From: a virus
Reading direction: 5' to 3' (one strand)
UHGV virus genome: UHGV-0138423
DNA: 42,842 bases
A model generated the notes under the pieces. The model did not search any database. It saw only the letters and a program-made list of their open reading frames with translations, and was not told the DNA's origin. The translations under genes were made by a program, and so were the position numbers. Within the stretch, counting starts at the first letter, position 1, and every line of letters begins with the position of its first letter. This document shows positions 25,605 through 41,750 of this stretch, piece after piece.

Positions 25605-25764
25605 AATGACGCCCTCTGGTGGTTTCTAAACCATCACCACCGTCAGGTTCCTAATCATCGGGTGGTGAGACGTACAGGGTTAGGAACTACCGGGAAACCA
25701 ACCGGCGAGCTTTTCAGCTCCCCCATACGCCCCACCATAATTCAGATGTGCGCGTGCATACGAC

Positions 25765-25789
25765 AATAAAAAACACGCTCGCGGCGTGT
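25765..25789 (-). terminator. tR'-like intrinsic terminator downstream of the late promoter
   Basis: Minus-strand RNA ACACGC-CGCGA-GCGUGU followed by UUUUUUAUU, about 60-80 nt downstream of the predicted pR' start. Confidence 0.55.
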
Positions 25790-25851
25790 GTCTGTCGCGG
25801 TCTCTATCCGGGGTTCCTAATCCCGACGCCAGATTTTGCTGGCGCGTGAGG

Positions 25852-25881
25852 AATATAGCCCCGAATAACAGATTGAGTCAA
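25852..25881 (-). promoter_or_regulatory. pR'-like late promoter overlapping the Q stop codon
   Basis: Minus strand: -35 TTGACT (plus 25876-25881), 18 nt spacer, -10 TATATT (plus 25852-25857); same position relative to Q as lambda pR'. Confidence 0.45.
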
Positions 25882-27877: not shown

Positions 27878-28033
27878 TTACTCCTCAGGTTCGTAAGCTG
27901 TGAAGACAGCGACCTCCGTCTGGCCGGTTCGGAGTCGTACCTCGCAGAGGTCTTTCCTCGTTACCAGTGCCGTCACTATGACGGTTAAACAGATGACGAT
28001 CAGGGCGATTAACATCGCCTTTTGCTGCTTCAT
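27878..28033 (-). CDS. hok: Hok/Gef-family type I toxin
   Basis: 51 aa from the internal ATG: MKQQKAMLIALIVICLTVIVTALVTRKDLCEVRLRTGQTEVAVFTAYEPEE, essentially identical to E. coli HokD/RelF as I recall it. Confidence 0.8.
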   Translation of the reverse strand: MKQQKAMLIALIVICLTVIVTALVTRKDLCEVRLRTGQTEVAVFTAYEPEE

Positions 28034-28292
28034 AGCCTGCTTCTCCTTGCCTTTCGGCACGTAAGAGGCTAACCTACGTGTGTAGAGCATAGATATGGCC
28101 TCAGATTAATGTTAAGCGTCTTGCCGGACGCGTAATGTTAACTGGGGCTTTTCTCTATCTGCCTTTTGGTGTTCATGCCTGAGACAGATAGCCTCAAGCA
28201 CCCGCAGTTATTCTACTTAACTAAGATTTCCCCGCAAACCGTTTTTGTCCGGCACAGTAAATATCCAACTAAACCAATGGCGTTCGCTGTAT

Positions 28293-35763: not shown

Positions 35764-35802
35764 TTTCTGGTGATTCGGCGGAAACGGATATCCGCCCTTT
35801 TT
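35764..35802 (+). ncRNA. dicF: Candidate DicF-family sRNA (ends at an intrinsic terminator)
   Basis: Begins UUUCUGGUGA and ends GGCGGA-AACGGAUA-UCCGCC CUUUUU; same 5' seed and 3' terminator context as E. coli DicF as I recall it, with a shorter middle. Sits upstream of the kilR-like gene inside a stop-rich, hairpin-dense segment. Confidence 0.5.
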
Positions 35803-35985
35803 AAAGTGAATTTTGTGATGCGGTGAATGCGGCTATGCGCACGCGGAACAGTTAAAGCAGTAAGGCGGTATTTTACGGGCGTAACGAGCATCAACTAATC
35901 CGGCGTTAATTGTTAACTGGTTAACGTCACCTGGAGGCACCAGGCACCGCATCGACAAAATTCATTTGTAAAAATGGAGATAATT

Positions 35986-36207
35986 ATGATTGCTCATCAC
36001 TTCGGAACTGATGAAATACCACGTCAGTGTGTGACCCCTGGTGATTATGTTCTTCATGAAGGTCGGACATATATCGCCTCGGCAAACAATATTAAAAAGC
36101 GGAAACTTTATATTCGTAGCCTGACTACAAAAACATGCATTTCTGACTGCATGATTAAAGTCTTCCTCGGTCGTGATGGTTTACCTGTAAAGGCGGAGTC
36201 ATGGTAA
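35986..36207 (+). CDS. kilR: KilR-like cell-division inhibitor
   Basis: 73 aa from ATG after GGAGA ([31 protein letters not shown]...); size and position (between sieB-position and ydaE) as Rac kilR. Confidence 0.55.
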
Positions 36208-36377
36208 TGACTAAGAAAATAAAATGTGATTATCACCTTTGCAATAAAGAAATTGAAGAAAGCAAAATCATTACAAGACCACTTCATTTCATGCGTGGAG
36301 TTATACCAACGACGGAAATGAAAAAATATTGTAGTGAAATCTGTGCCGAAAAAGACCAGATGGCACACGAACTTTAA
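36207..36377 (+). CDS. ydaE: YdaE-like small metal-binding protein
   Basis: 56 aa ([18 protein letters not shown]...KYCSEICAEKDQMAHEL) with two Cys pairs; start overlaps the kilR-like stop (TAATG); below the ORF-track size cut-off. Confidence 0.55.
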   Translation: MTKKIKCDYHLCNKEIEESKIITRPLHFMRGVIPTTEMKKYCSEICAEKDQMAHEL

Positions 36378-36451
36378 TTAACTGACTATTCGAAACTGAA
36401 TTTATGCCAGCAATGGTAGGGATTCTTTCAACCTTAAAAAAGGAAACAGAA

Positions 36452-36748
36452 ATGAGCATTATTGAATGTGAAATTGAACTTAATGTCATTAACGATTCTC
36501 TCGCCGAATTCAAATGTGGGAATACATTACATGGTTTTATTCAGGTTTCCCAAAAAGAAAACGTTACGGTAATTATTGATGGCGGTTACGTTCTGGGAAC
36601 ATTTGATTGTTATGTGTGTGCCATTAAAGAAGTCGCATTACTCGCAGCTCGTATTGAAGAGGCTGACAAGAAATACGGCATCAGTTATCAACGGCAGAAA
36701 GAACTCTCAGGCATCGCATCATCAGTTCATTTCTTTTATGCAATCTGA
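36452..36748 (+). CDS. Hypothetical protein (RacC position)
   Basis: 98 aa from ATG after AGGAAACAGAA; immediately upstream of the RecE-like gene. Confidence 0.4.
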   Translation: MSIIECEIELNVINDSLAEFKCGNTLHGFIQVSQKENVTVIIDGGYVLGTFDCYVCAIKEVALLAARIEEADKKYGISYQRQKELSGIASSVHFFYAI

Positions 36749-36772
36749 ATATGAGTTGAGGTTAAAAAAACA

Positions 36773-39700
36773 ATGAGCACCGATAAACAAGTTTACCCAC
36801 TGTATTACGAAGCAAAAAATGACAAAGTAAGAAAACGTCTCGGTATTAAAGGCGGTTTCTACTGGGCTGAAGCGAAAAAATTATCCATTGCCATCTCCCG
36901 TGGTGCTGTTGCGATTGACGATGCTGGCTACGATGAAGATGACTTTAAAAAACCTGTTCGCGTCAATTTGCCCGTTGTTGATGACCTTCCACCAGAAGGC
37001 GTATTTGATACGGAATTTTGCAACCGTTACGAAAAAGGCGGGGAAGATGGCATCACAATGGTATTTATCGCGCCCTCATCCTCTGCGCAGGACAAAACAG
37101 CCAGCACTGACAATACCAATGTTAATGGCGAAGACATGACTGAGATTGAGGAGAATATGCTACTCCCGATTTCTGGCCAAGAGCTGCCCATCCGCTGGCT
37201 TGCTCAACACGGCAGCGAAAAACCGGTAACGCACGTTTCACGCGACGAACTCCAGGTATTACATATTGCACGGGCTGAAGAACTACCAGCTGTTACTGCC
37301 CTGGCTGTTTCCCACAAAACCAGCCTGCTCGACCCGCTGGAGATTCGCGATCTTCACAGACTGGTTCGTGATACTGACAAAGTTTTCCCTAATCCTGGCA
37401 ATTCAAGTCTGGGGCTGATGACTGCTTTTTTCGAAGCATACCTGGACGCAGACTACACCGATCGCGGTCTGCTGACAAAAGAGTGGATGAAAGGAAATCG
37501 TGTTTCACGCATCACGCGCACGGCTTCCGGCGCTAATGCTGGCGGCGGGAACCTCACCGATCGCGGCGAAGATTTCGTTCACGATCTGACGTCACTGGCG
37601 CGCGACGTAGCCACTGGCGTACTGGCTCGTTCAATGGACGTGGACATTTATAACCTTCATCCGGCACACGCTAAACGTGTCGAGGAAATTATCGCTGAAA
37701 ATAAACCGCCCTTTTCTGTTTTCCGCGACAAATTCATCGCCATGCCTGGTGGGCTGGATTATTCCCGTGCCATCGTGGTTGCGGCCGTGAAAGAAGCACC
37801 AATTGGTATCGAGGTCATCACTGCGCATGTCACTGAATATCTGAACAAGGTACTTATTGAAACCGATCATGCCAACCCTGATCCAGAAATCGTGGATATT
37901 GCCTGCGGTCGCTCCTCTGCCCCGATGCCGCAGCGTGTAACAGAAGAAGAAAAACAGGATGACGAAGAAAAACCGCAACCATCTGGCGCAATGGCATATG
38001 AACAGGCAACGGCTGAAACAGTGGAACCGGATGCAACTGAACATCATCAGGACACGCAGCCGCTGGATGCTCAGTCACAGGTAAATTCTGTTGATGCGAA
38101 ATATCTGAAACTGCGGGCAGAACTCCATGAAGCCCGGAAAAACATTCCGCCAAAAAATCCTGTCGATGCAGACAAATTACTGGCTGCCTCTCGCGGAGAA
38201 TTTGTTGAAGGGATTAGCGACCCGAATGATCCGAAATGGGTTAATGGGATCCAGACCCGCGATTCTGTGTACCAGAATCAGCCAGAAACGAAACAGCCTG
38301 AGCCAGTAGTGCAACAACAGGAAACGGAGAAAGTTTGCACCGCCTGCGGTCAGGCTGGCGGCGGCAACTGTCCTGACTGTGGCGCGGTGATGGGCGACGC
38401 AACGTATCAGAAAACCTTTAATGAAGAAAATCAGAATGAATATCAGGAAAAAGGTCTGGAGGAAATGGAAGGTGCTGAACATCCGCACAAGGAGAACGCT
38501 GGCAACCATTCGCATCATGATTGCAGTGATGAAACTGGTGAAGCGTCAGTTCCTGTAGCAACTGAAATCATGTGGCCGTCATATTTCGAGCCTGGACGTT
38601 ATGAAAACCTCCCGAACGAGGTTTATCACTCCGCCAACGGAATAAGCAGCACGATGCTGAAGGATGCCCGTATCAGCCTGATGTATTACCACGGGCGGCA
38701 CATTGCCGGAACTATTCCGGGCGAGGAAAGTGATGCATTGCTGCGTGGGCGGATTATTCACAGCTATGTTCTGGAAACGGATAAATTCGCTGATGAGTAT
38801 GCCATTCCGGTACCGGTTCCTGAATATGTGGTTACTACTTCTAACGAACTGATCGCCATCATTAAAAAACACAATGCCAGTCTGCCAGCACCGATGACAC
38901 CAGAGCAGATGAAAGAGTGGATCGAAAGCTACAACAGCACTCTTATACAGCCACTGTCGGTAAGTGCCGGGGCCGAAGAAACAGGCATCCTTTACGGTTC
39001 GCTTCCGGAGGAATTCCGGCGTATTCCTGAGAGGGAAAAACACACAGCATCAGCAATGAAAGCCTGTATTAAAGAATACAACGCAAACCTCCCTCCTCTG
39101 TTGAAAACCAGTGGATCACGGGAGCAACTTCTGGAGCAAATTGAAACTGTAAATCCAGAACTGGCAAAAAAAGAACGTGCTAAATCTTTGCCTTACAACA
39201 TCAGTGGCACAAAAGAGCAATTAACCGAAATCGCACGGAAAATTCGCCCGGAACTGGTGACTCTGGAAGACTGGCAAAAACGCCAGCAAGAAGAAAACGC
39301 CGGGAAAACGTTTATCAGTCCGGATATGTATGAACAGGCAAAAAATATTCACGCTGCACTGCAAAACAATACCGATGCAGCAAGGCTACTCAACCACCCG
39401 GATCGCAAATCTGAAATCAGCTATTTCGGGTTTGATGAAGAAACCGGGCTGGAAATCAGGGTCCGTCCTGATATCGAAATCCGGCTGCCATACGAAAGCA
39501 TTTGCGCCGACGTGAAGTCAGTCAGCCTCGGTTATGTGCGACAGGAACGACTGAAAGATCGGCTGCACCGTGAAATTATTGAGCGTGATTATCACCTCAG
39601 CGCAGCAATGTACTGCGATGTGGCAAACCTGGACAAATTTTTCTGGATCTTCGTCAACAAAGATGCTGGCTATCACTGGGTGGCCGTCGTGGAAGCCTCG

Positions 39701-39859
39701 CAGGAACTCCTGGAACTTGGTCGACAGGAATATCGCCGGACGCTACGACAGATAAATGAAGCTCTGGAGACAAACAACTGGCCAGCACCGATTACCGAAA
39801 GTTATACCGACGAATTAAACGACTTTGATCTTCGTCGTCTTGAAGCACTGAGCATCTGA
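36773..39859 (+). CDS. recE: Exodeoxyribonuclease VIII (RecE-like) with divergent C-terminal nuclease domain
   Basis: 1028 aa; long central stretch (..[45 protein letters not shown]...[25 protein letters not shown]..) near-identical to Rac RecE as I recall it; the C-terminal nuclease region differs and is longer. Confidence 0.8.
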
Positions 39860-39870
39860 GGAAGGACACA

Positions 39871-40923
39871 ATGAACGAATTAACTCAACAAGAAAATATT
39901 AACTCTAATGTTGCGGTTTTCAGCCCTCAGTCCCTGGCTGCAATTCAGACATTTTCCCAGGTAATGGCTTCCGGCATGGCTACTGTACCGGAACACCTCC
40001 GGGGAAATCCATCAGACTGCATGGCCATCACCATGCAGGCGATGCAGTGGCAAATGAACCCTTACGCAGTAGCTCAGAAAACTTTCGTTGTGAATGGTGT
40101 GCTCGGATATGAAGCGCAACTTGTTAATGCCGTAATCAGTACTCGTGGGCCGCTAACCGGGCGTATTGAATATGACTGGTTCGGGCCGTGGGAAAAAATT
40201 ATCGGGAAATTTGAAATCAGGAAGAACGACAAGGGGAAAGAATATCGTGTACCTGGCTGGAAGCTGGCCGATGAAAACGGGATCGGTGTTCGCGTCCAGG
40301 CAACACTACGCGGAGAGAGCAAGCCACGCGTACTGGAGTTACTTCTGGCGCAGGCCAGAACACGTAACTCAACGTTATGGGCCGATGATCCTCGCCAGCA
40401 GCTTGCCTATCTGGCTCTGAAACGCTGGGCGCGCCTTTATTGCCCTGAAGTGATTCTTGGAGTGTACACCCGGGACGAACTGGACGAACCACAGGAAAAA
40501 ATCATTAATCCGGTTCAGGAACATAAAAACACATCCGCCTGCCGTGCGGAACGTGAAACAACAATTATTGAGCAAGATGCCGGGGAAAACTGGATCAGTG
40601 CTTTCCGTGAACGTATTGAGCAGGCACAAAGCACCGGAGAAACAACAGCACTTCGCCAGGAAGTGGAAGATCATAAAAATACACTTGGCGCTCTCTACAC
40701 AGAACTTAAAGGAAAAGTGGTTCAGCGTCATCACCGTCTCAATGCTATTGCCCGTATTGAGAAGATGATAAATGACCTGCCTTCATCAGGTGATCCAGAA
40801 GCAGAACAAAAATTTATTGCTCTGGAAAATACGCTGAATGCTGCACGACCACATCTGGGAGAATTATATGAGGCGTATAAAACGACACTGACAGATATGA
40901 AACCAGAATATATCGGCTCCTGA
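39871..40923 (+). CDS. Single-strand annealing protein (RecT/Redbeta superfamily), partner of the RecE-like exonuclease
   Basis: 350 aa directly downstream of recE-like gene; central region (..MNPYAVAQKTFVVNGVLGYEAQL...WADDPRQQLAYLALKRWARLY..) follows the pattern of Bet/RecT-type proteins; does not match my recollection of Rac RecT. Confidence 0.55.
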   Translation: MNELTQQENINSNVAVFSPQSLAAIQTFSQVMASGMATVPEHLRGNPSDCMAITMQAMQWQMNPYAVAQKTFVVNGVLGYEAQLVNAVISTRGPLTGRIEYDWFGPWEKIIGKFEIRKNDKGKEYRVPGWKLADENGIGVRVQATLRGESKPRVLELLLAQARTRNSTLWADDPRQQLAYLALKRWARLYCPEVILGVYTRDELDEPQEKIINPVQEHKNTSACRAERETTIIEQDAGENWISAFRERIEQAQSTGETTALRQEVEDHKNTLGALYTELKGKVVQRHHRLNAIARIEKMINDLPSSGDPEAEQKFIALENTLNAARPHLGELYEAYKTTLTDMKPEYIGS

Positions 40924-40930
40924 TATTTAC

Positions 40931-40956
40931 TATGGCGGTGTAGCCTCACCGCCATA
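40931..40956 (+). terminator. Hairpin after the annealing-protein gene (possible terminator)
   Basis: TATGGCGGTG-TAGCCT-CACCGCCATA, 10 bp stem, followed by moderately T-rich sequence. Confidence 0.4.
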
Positions 40957-40986
40957 ACAAAACTTTATTTTATGAGAGAAAAGACA

Positions 40987-41181
40987 ATGCGGTATGAAAA
41001 AGTCAAACCATGTCCGTTTTGTGGTTGTCCATCAGTAACGGTGAAAGCCATTTCAGGATATTACCGCGCAAAGTGTAACGGATGCGAATCCCGAACTGGC
41101 TATAGTGGAAGTGAAAAAGAAGCACTCGAAAGATGGAATAAACGAACTACTGGAAATAATAATGGAGGTGTTCATGTATAA
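40987..41181 (+). CDS. ralR: Restriction alleviation protein (Lar/RalR family)
   Basis: 64 aa: MRYEKVKPCPFCGCPSVTVKAISGYYRAKCNGCESRTGYSGSEKEALERWNKRTTGNNNGGVHV; Cys4 zinc-ribbon; matches Rac RalR as I recall it. Confidence 0.8.
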   Translation: MRYEKVKPCPFCGCPSVTVKAISGYYRAKCNGCESRTGYSGSEKEALERWNKRTTGNNNGGVHV

Positions 41182-41362
41182 AATTACTGCCACTATTGAA
41201 AAGGAAGGTGGCACTCCTACTAACTGGACAAGGTACTCAAAAACAAAATTAACCAAATCAGAATGCGAAAAAATGCTCTCAGGTAAAAAAGAAGCAGGCG
41301 TTTCCAGAGAGCAGAAAGTAAAGCTGATAAATTTTAATTGCGAGAAGCTTCTGTCCTCGTGA
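41174..41362 (+). CDS. ydaC: YdaC-like small protein (DUF1187)
   Basis: 62 aa from ATG after GGAGG (MYKITATIEKEGGTPTNWTRYSK...); position between ralR and xis as in Rac. Confidence 0.5.
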   Translation: MYKITATIEKEGGTPTNWTRYSKTKLTKSECEKMLSGKKEAGVSREQKVKLINFNCEKLLSS

Positions 41363-41462
41363 GTTGCATTATATACAAATTAGAACTTCATAGCTGATTA
41401 TTAAAAATCAACCACACCCGCCAGTATTCTGTATATTTACTGGCGGTCATATCGTAAGAGGT

Positions 41463-41750
41463 ATGGCAATGAATCTTGTGACACTAAAAACGTGGGGAAA
41501 ACTCAGATATCCAGATAACCCACCATCAATATCAACGCTGAGACGATGGGCAAGGAATGGAAACATTTATCCTGCACCTGAACTACACGGGAGGAGTTAC
41601 AGGGTGGTTCCGGAGGCTTTCTATATCAACCCAAATAAGGTTGATACCGATATAACACACCATCAACCTAATGGGCGACAAGGGAGAGACAGTCCGTTAC
41701 TGGAGAAGTTAAAACATGCAGCGGAAAAAATACGATCCCAATTTGCCTAA
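41463..41750 (+). CDS. xis: Excisionase-like DNA-binding protein
   Basis: 95 aa ORF immediately upstream of and overlapping the integrase gene. Confidence 0.5.
   Translation: MAMNLVTLKTWGKLRYPDNPPSISTLRRWARNGNIYPAPELHGRSYRVVPEAFYINPNKVDTDITHHQPNGRQGRDSPLLEKLKHAAEKIRSQFA

Follow-up and report, generated by a model that had tools for sequence, protein, structure and literature searches.

How a recE gene can be Rac-like in its centre and differ from Rac both in its nuclease domain and in the annealing partner encoded next to it, and what might match such a nuclease to that partner, are the questions raised by the recET locus of the virus genome UHGV-0138423. The window analyzed here, i.e., the whole stretch of 42,842 nucleotides (nt), is identical (100%) to a Rac-like prophage in Escherichia coli strain C25. 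Its recET locus consists of two co-directional open reading frames of 1028 and 350 amino acids (aa; Table 1), and the identical locus of C25 carries the RefSeq names 'recE: exodeoxyribonuclease VIII' and 'RecT family recombinase'. An earlier sequence-only reading had described a RecE-like exonuclease with a remodelled nuclease domain, forming a distinct pair with an annealing protein unlike Rac RecT. We consider the locus as a whole to be best explained as the Rec module of a Rac-like E. coli prophage, in which a mosaic recE and a Gifsy-type cassette would work like RecET, a helical insertion in the nuclease domain would serve in substrate capture and the C-terminal domain of RecT (hereafter the tail) would serve as an adaptor to the nuclease. 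The probability that we attach to this explanation is about 0.7, and RecET-like action is suggested by family membership, by conserved catalytic residues and by the published genetics of Gifsy orthologues.

The K-12 Rac RecE and RecT proteins were retrieved for direct comparison, and the junctions in the DNA were taken from blastn against the K-12 Rac region. Positions 37111-38557 of the window were 89% identical in nucleotide sequence to K-12 recE and positions 40966-41412 were 92% identical to the Rac ralR region, while blastn detected no nucleotide similarity to K-12 Rac from 38558 to 40965, or at the beginning of the gene from 36781 to 37110. The junctions mapped at 38557/38558 and 40965/40966. 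The left one corresponds to RecE aa 595/596 (Rac aa ~590) and is located in an acidic linker just before the nuclease domain; the nuclease domain of Rac RecE comprises residues 564-866 (review PMC11611040), and the truncated RecE form E588 is widely used (PMC11257833). Given this position of the left junction, the nuclease domain and the entire recT were exchanged as a single 2.4-kb block. The recE gene is a mosaic, with a Rac-type centre (aa 113-595) followed by a 2.4-kb block that was swapped in through the end of recT. These results bear out the module shuffling inside the operon that the sequence-only reading had proposed, together with its division of RecE into a central ~500 aa close to Rac RecE (89% identity over aa 113-595), a differing N-terminal ~100 aa (29% over aa 1-112) and a differing C-terminal nuclease region (only ~30% over aa 596-1028). 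The global pairwise alignment of the full RecE proteins was used for aa 1-595 only, as its C-terminal third is misaligned because of the insertion; comparisons of the nuclease domain rest on phmmer, BLAST and MAFFT. With a junction at the exact edge of the nuclease domain and recT moving along, the locus amounts to a natural domain-swap experiment.

By its sequence, the incoming block is a nuclease-plus-annealase cassette of the Gifsy-1/Gifsy-2 type. Full-length homologues of the nuclease domain with 52-53% identity were found in Salmonella (annotated 'Gifsy-1 prophage RecE'), Klebsiella, Citrobacter and Ewingella. Gifsy-1 and Gifsy-2 of Salmonella Typhimurium share the insertion and a C-terminal motif of the nuclease (52-53% identity over aa 596-1028), the gene order and a RecT with the same tail (48.6% identity to Gifsy-1 RecT over aa 10-349), and, like the window, they are rich in Chi sites and have neither an anti-RecBCD nor an SSB gene annotated near the pair. 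The Gifsy pairs differ from that of the window by ~50% sequence divergence, and upstream of the nuclease domain Gifsy-1 and the homologues of other genera are only 27-47% identical to the window's RecE, which is there Rac-type (89% identity to K-12 RecE aa 102-590). A scan of one genome per species identified 80 loci across Enterobacterales, including Serratia, Proteus, Edwardsiella and Pectobacterium. The cassette type is further found in the phages Rac-SA53 (97.5% identity), mEp237, HK225, Gifsy-1, Gifsy-2, SPN3UB and Aeromonas phage pAEv1818, and among 5426 complete E. coli genomes 193 contain the cassette itself; the exact RecT sequence occurs on 395 contigs. The nuclease domain does differ from that of Rac, as implied by the word remodelled, but the difference did not arise in situ: a widespread cassette that already existed took the place of both this domain and recT. 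Similarly, the pair is distinct from that of Rac but not new, since it is already in databases under ordinary names (on the 395 contigs, in the 193 E. coli genomes and in phage Rac-SA53).

It should be noted that two loci of the scan, one recorded as Sphingomonas sp. (L022) and one as Streptomyces sp. (L074), carry a typical enterobacterial Gifsy-type cassette with a Serratia-like partner, for which assembly contamination seems likely. Record PP818812.1 ('Actinobacillus phage vB_Apl-pPE4') contains the E. coli cassette at 95% nucleotide identity, with a RecT of 99% identity, which is unexpected for its stated host.

Mosaic Rec modules and Gifsy-type RecET are both already known. Both Gifsy recET pairs, once activated by mutation, promote recombination in vivo, according to the statements in PMC3121763 and PMC8496262 that cite Lemire et al. 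(2008). In a 2025 survey, Gifsy-1 is the prototype of class B of the lambdoid Rec modules, i.e., a nuclease and an annealase with no anti-RecBCD gene and many Chi sites (PMC12315714). The window resembles this class on both counts: no gam or ssb is annotated between the repressor gene and int in C25, as checked by product name only, and 11 Chi sites were found versus 1.5 expected, 10 of them on one strand. An association of Chi-rich lambdoid phages with Rec modules lacking an anti-RecBCD gene has been reported (PMC12315714), and the Chi content of the window agrees with it. The eleven sites (GCTGGTGG) lie within 6754-28751, ten on the minus strand, across structural and late genes.

The 350-aa partner is, as the sequence-only reading had it, of the RecT/Bet type and not Rac RecT. 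It matches Pfam PF03837 with 147.9 bits (threshold 24; E 3.5e-43) over aa 30-209, also matches phrog_561 and belongs to an 855-member cluster named 'RecT family recombinase'. BLASTP gave no significant similarity to Rac RecT (E 0.36) or to lambda Bet (E 0.02 over 34 aa), nor between RecE and lambda Exo (E 0.80). The NCBIfam RecT models (NF007351/TIGR00616) did not match the 350-aa RecT, and hhalign of its alignment (Neff 2.2) against Rac RecT returned nothing (probability 0.3%). Homology of this RecT to Rac RecT is thus suggested by the shared Pfam family only. In the AlphaFold2 model of RecT (40 sequences), the protein is divided into an annealing core, an acidic linker that is predicted to be disordered and the helical tail. 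The top Foldseek match of the core was the N-terminal domain of Red-beta (7UJL), a weak match with E 0.044. Relatives in the cluster at 58-70% identity, and one E. coli locus, are named 'enterohemolysin' (a legacy of Ehly1), which is an old misannotation.

The distribution of the tail points to what it may do. In 78 of the 80 loci, a gene matching the window's RecT starts within 50 nt of the nuclease stop codon (from an overlap of up to 40 nt to a gap of 46 nt; one disrupted locus excepted), and five of these 78 match through the tail alone. In these five loci, from Serratia and others, and in Aeromonas phage pAEv1818, a Rac-like RecT core (~31% identity to Rac RecT) carries the same tail and accompanies the same nuclease type, and the motif LYTELKNKxVxxHHRLNAIA is shared by the tails on both types of core. 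Tail-less phages with a RecT core of the window's subfamily have either a small plain-type nuclease (TL-2011b and Tyrion, 273 aa) or a covalent RecE-RecT fusion. Pairwise-identity distance matrices over 71 loci (Mantel p 0.002 each; ranges are with and without the loci with Rac-like cores) gave a correlation of r=0.77-0.79 between the nuclease core and the RecT tail, compared to r=0.22-0.25 between the nuclease core and the RecT core and r=0.28-0.45 between the RecT core and its own tail. On the DNA, the RecT core separates the nuclease from the tail, and simple linkage therefore cannot account for outer parts that covary and a middle part that does not.

We infer that the tail is a nuclease-specific docking adaptor. 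That the tail tracks the nuclease in the 71 loci while the annealing core shuffles freely points to the tail as the specificity determinant, and tethering of RecT to the nuclease through the tail would account for the nuclease domain and annealase travelling as one block. In the lambda system, the C-terminal domain of Red-beta binds lambda Exo (PMC6393309), and exonuclease/annealase pairs interact specifically whereas heterologous pairs fail, as stated in PMC6393309 with reference to Muyrers (2000). Shuffling of partner-interaction domains was called likely, though unanalysed, in PMC12315714. On the nuclease side, the RecT tail may dock at the conserved motif at aa 1015-1026, a candidate site because the motif is restricted to the Gifsy-type nuclease: all of the Gifsy-type homologues aligned have it, whereas Rac RecE, phiV10 and the remote nucleases with insertions do not. 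A literature search found no paper that analyses this tail.

The assignment of the first gene is firm in its family: RecE scored 1522.9 bits against NCBIfam NF007259 (cut-off 1269), and 129.4 and 51 bits against Pfam PF06630 (threshold 25) and PF12684 (threshold 26), respectively. The nuclease domain aligns only weakly with Rac RecE (29% identity over aa 880-1005, plus a weak match over aa 611-684), and its active site is kept. In the phmmer alignment to the RecE crystal structure 3H4R, H663, D900, D913 and K915, which are conserved in the homologues, pair with Rac H652, D748, D759 and K761, the motif RPD pairing with D748 and D-V-K with D759-K761. A MAFFT pairing of the Rac D-V-K with YVR was discarded for the phmmer alignment, which pairs DVK with DVK.

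The same phmmer alignment consists of two stretches (query 616-684 with chain 5-69, and query 878-1009 with chain 125-253) and thus leaves ~190 query residues opposite ~55 in Rac RecE. The match to Pfam DUF3799 (PF12684) is likewise split in the window's RecE and continuous in Rac RecE. With 433 aa, the nuclease domain is not a contiguous ~260-aa domain with a short rim loop like 3H4R. The multiple alignment placed ~140 extra residues between Rac C689 and A690, inside loop 665-698 of Rac RecE, which is at the rim of the DNA channel and has been assigned to substrate capture (PMC11611040 sec. 2.3). AlphaFold2 with a 16-sequence alignment predicted the insertion to be all-helical, in helix-extended linker-helix (HeH) units, with a predicted local distance difference test (pLDDT) of 80-95, while the nuclease core was poorly modelled (pLDDT 30-50). 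Including the flanking first repeat, the helices are at aa 690-703, 710-722, 759-771, 783-793 and 814-824; helix 690-703 pairs with 710-722, and 759-771 with 783-793, through linkers of 6-11 residues. The long helical insertion that the sequence-only reading had suspected is accordingly present in alignment and model alike, and the two peptides quoted for it occur in RecE at aa 683-701 and 850-865.

Further analyses revealed that the insertion is internally repetitive, with two types of motifs: an 'A' motif (xxxIKxxIxxYNAxLP) at aa 688-705, 708-725 and 757-775, and a 'B' motif (KTSGSRxxLLEQIxxxNPEL) at aa 779-797 and 810-828. Across 85 homologues, the insertion falls into length classes of 68, 115, ~166, 183 or 217 aa. 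Rac RecE and phiV10 have no copy of the motifs, three loci have one A and one B (68 aa), two loci have the 115-aa version, most loci have the window-like version of ~166 aa, and with three copies of each motif, one locus and a Klebsiella protein reach 217 aa. Pfam SAP (PF02037) matched 12 of 21 homologous insertions (best E 1.5e-7), and a literature search linking 'SAP domain' and RecE found no paper. We infer that the insertion is an enlarged substrate-capture module at the dsDNA (double-stranded DNA) entrance, i.e., the mouth of the channel. The SAP-motif array in RecE and the RecT tail may be details not described previously. The SAP/HeH-like array also offers a handle on the role of the channel-rim loop, a loop that is disordered in the only RecE crystal structure.

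Taken together, the PD-(D/E)XK domain would resect the 5' strand at a dsDNA end, which the expanded rim loop with its SAP/HeH-like array would capture at the entrance; the RecT core would then coat the 3' overhang and anneal it to a complementary strand, while the tail would tether RecT to its cognate nuclease, as the C-terminal domain of Red-beta does with lambda Exo. A broader version of this proposal, which we put forward tentatively and at somewhat less than even odds, is that a portable ~110-aa tail docks unrelated annealase cores on the Gifsy-type nuclease and that the expandable SAP/HeH array (1-3 copies per motif) is a tunable clamp for DNA ends, a mode of coupling not yet described. 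If so, the partner specificity in recombineering could be rewired by transplanting the tail. Recombineering relies mainly on RecET and Red pairs, and we know of no structural explanation for the mutual recognition of RecE and RecT. The findings suggest simple RecT chimeras and provide a second E. coli-native exonuclease/annealase pair to try; none of them overturns the current understanding.

Several observations weigh against the proposed roles of the insertion and the tail. The window's own insertion gave only a sub-threshold match to SAP_new25 (E 0.063, or 0.0035 on a fragment), and it is from its homologues that the SAP reading is carried over. The insertion has a net negative charge (-2 in the window, with a median of -9 in 84 homologues), which disfavours simple DNA binding. 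A Foldseek search of the tail against PDB returned no structural match. The correlation between tail and nuclease indicates co-inheritance or co-evolution and is not proof of physical contact. Finally, the partner annealases of remote nucleases that carry comparable insertions have no tail of this kind, which makes binding of the tail to the insertion itself improbable. Binding of the tail to the insertion, which had been a candidate, is weakened both by these Sak4-like or tail-less annealases and by the short-insertion loci L079, L080 and L082, which keep a tailed RecT.

The acidity of the insertion would also suit a role other than DNA capture, namely that of a platform at the toroid mouth on which proteins dock, be it a host factor (e.g., single-stranded DNA-binding protein, SSB), the RecT filament or another phage protein. 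SAP/HeH/LEM-type motifs can mediate protein contacts, and the insertion covaries with the RecT tail (r=0.73). We nevertheless regard such a platform as unlikely. The correlation with the tail arises because the insertion is linked to the nuclease core at r=0.90, where homologous insertions occur in remote nucleases the annealase is Sak4-like (AAA_24) or a RecT without the tail, the loop that the insertion occupies is the one to which substrate capture is assigned in Rac RecE, and seven Lys/Arg residues within the insertion are invariant.

For the tail, an improbable alternative to a nuclease adaptor is that it serves mainly in binding host SSB or in self-oligomerisation, its association with the nuclease type reflecting shared descent only. 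Annealase function depends on the C-terminal tail of SSB (PMC11611040, PMC13490951), and the C-terminal domain of Red-beta binds lambda Exo and SSB alike (PMC6393309). Shared descent, however, would keep the intervening RecT core at least as well correlated with the nuclease as the tail is, which is not what was found (0.22-0.25 versus 0.77-0.79), and where the tail has moved to another RecT core, the nuclease next to it is still of the same type. Since the C-terminal peptide of SSB shows little variation across Enterobacterales, it would not be a driver of the covariation between tail and nuclease. Binding of SSB and the role of nuclease adaptor are not mutually exclusive. Last, an inert cassette, left over in a decaying cryptic prophage and with oddities that have no function, is highly improbable, even though Rac-like prophages are often defective, an IS5 insertion was found in the locus of one genome and genes are split or truncated in four loci (L014, L048, L075 and L077), because neither open reading frame is disrupted in the window or in ~159 complete E. 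coli genomes, the catalytic motif has been conserved, the architecture is kept across Enterobacterales down to ~45-50% identity and in the viable phages mEp237, HK225, Gifsy-1/2 and SPN3UB, and the window has a full set of structural and lysis genes.

Among known systems, the window resembles K-12 Rac in operon position, in the downstream ralR/RalA, xis and int, in the nearly identical RecE aa 113-595, in equal PD-(D/E)XK residues and in having an annealase of Pfam family RecT. It differs from Rac in a nuclease domain that is ~30% identical to that of Rac RecE (3H4R, RecE 606-866) and ~160 aa longer, mostly from the 140-aa array, and in a RecT of 350 aa with an extra C-terminal helical domain and no pairwise similarity to the 269-aa Rac RecT. 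Lambda Red (6M9K) would be alike in combining a toroidal 5'-3' exonuclease with an annealase core that has a separate, nuclease-binding C-terminal helical domain (PMC6393309); the ~110-aa tail is longer than the C-terminal domain of Red-beta, and the window has no annotated gam gene.

The phiV10/epsilon15-type (Uetakevirus) fusion and the TL-2011b pair share with the window the RecT core subfamily (48-63% identity over aa 10-223) and a PF12684 nuclease, but their nuclease has neither the insertion nor an N-terminal extension and their RecT has no window-type tail. In phiV10 (L085:2116-3876) and related Uetakevirus, one protein of 586 aa contains an insertion-less nuclease at aa 21-254 and a RecT core at aa 310-490; such covalent fusion is an alternative to tethering through a tail. 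Stand-alone remote RecE-like nucleases with SAP-like insertions also occur on metagenome contigs, where they are followed not by RecT but by AAA_24 proteins of 335-343 aa (L087:4341-5372 and L089:4317-5324) that look Sak4-like and have long C-terminal extensions of their own.

Table 1. Features of the recET locus, with positions in the 42,842-nt window.
Feature	Position	Strand	Evidence
recE-like gene (exodeoxyribonuclease VIII family), 1028 aa	36773..39859	+	open reading frame, NCBIfam, Pfam, C25 annotation
N-terminal segment, aa 1-112, 29% identity to Rac RecE	36773..37108	+	pairwise protein comparison
Rac-like centre, aa 113-595, 89% aa and 89% nt identity to K-12 recE	37109..38557	+	alignments
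Swapped cassette: recE nuclease domain, whole recT and short 3' spacer	38558..40965	+	blastn; Rac-like DNA on both sides
PD-(D/E)XK nuclease domain, Gifsy type, aa 596-1028	38558..39856	+	catalytic residues by alignment: H663, E881, D900, D913, K915
Helical insertion, aa ~701-840, SAP/HeH-like motif array in place of the tip of Rac loop 665-698	38873..39292	+	repeats, alignment, AlphaFold2, Pfam SAP in homologues
Conserved C-terminal motif, aa 1015-1026	39815..39850	+	in all Gifsy-type homologues aligned
Ribosome-binding site GGAAGGA, 4 nt 5' of recT ATG	39860..39866	+	sequence
recT-family annealase gene, 350 aa	39871..40923	+	open reading frame, PF03837, phrog_561, cluster name
RecT annealing core, Pfam match aa 30-209	39958..40497	+	Pfam; AlphaFold2 pLDDT 65-89
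Acidic linker, predicted disordered, about aa 193-237, net charge -6	40447..40578	+	AlphaFold2 pLDDT <50
C-terminal helical domain (tail), aa 237-347, proposed nuclease-docking adaptor	40579..40911	+	AlphaFold2 pLDDT 84-90

The two genes are separated by 11 nt, within which the ribosome-binding site of recT is located, and a scan for promoters and terminators in 35800-41600 gave nothing above chance. According to the C25 annotation, recET is preceded by kilR and ydaE and followed by ralR, an excisionase gene and an integrase gene, and the structural and lysis genes of the window were taken from the same annotation. Directly 3' of recT, as in K-12 Rac, are the ralR toxin gene (40987-41181, plus strand) and the gene of the antisense small RNA RalA (41180-41358, minus strand; Rfam RF02694, 212 bits). 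Elsewhere in the prophage, there are Rfam matches at 28028-28203 and 25658-25858, both on the minus strand; one is to the sok antitoxin RNA, beside hokD, which is annotated in the C25 copy, and the others, to isrK, C4 antisense RNA and c4-a1b1, overlap one another. In the central region of RecE, a zinc-ribbon-like CxxC-(x5)-CxxC motif is found at aa 522-537 (38336-38383) and is conserved in K-12 Rac RecE (CNACGQTGGDNCPDCG).

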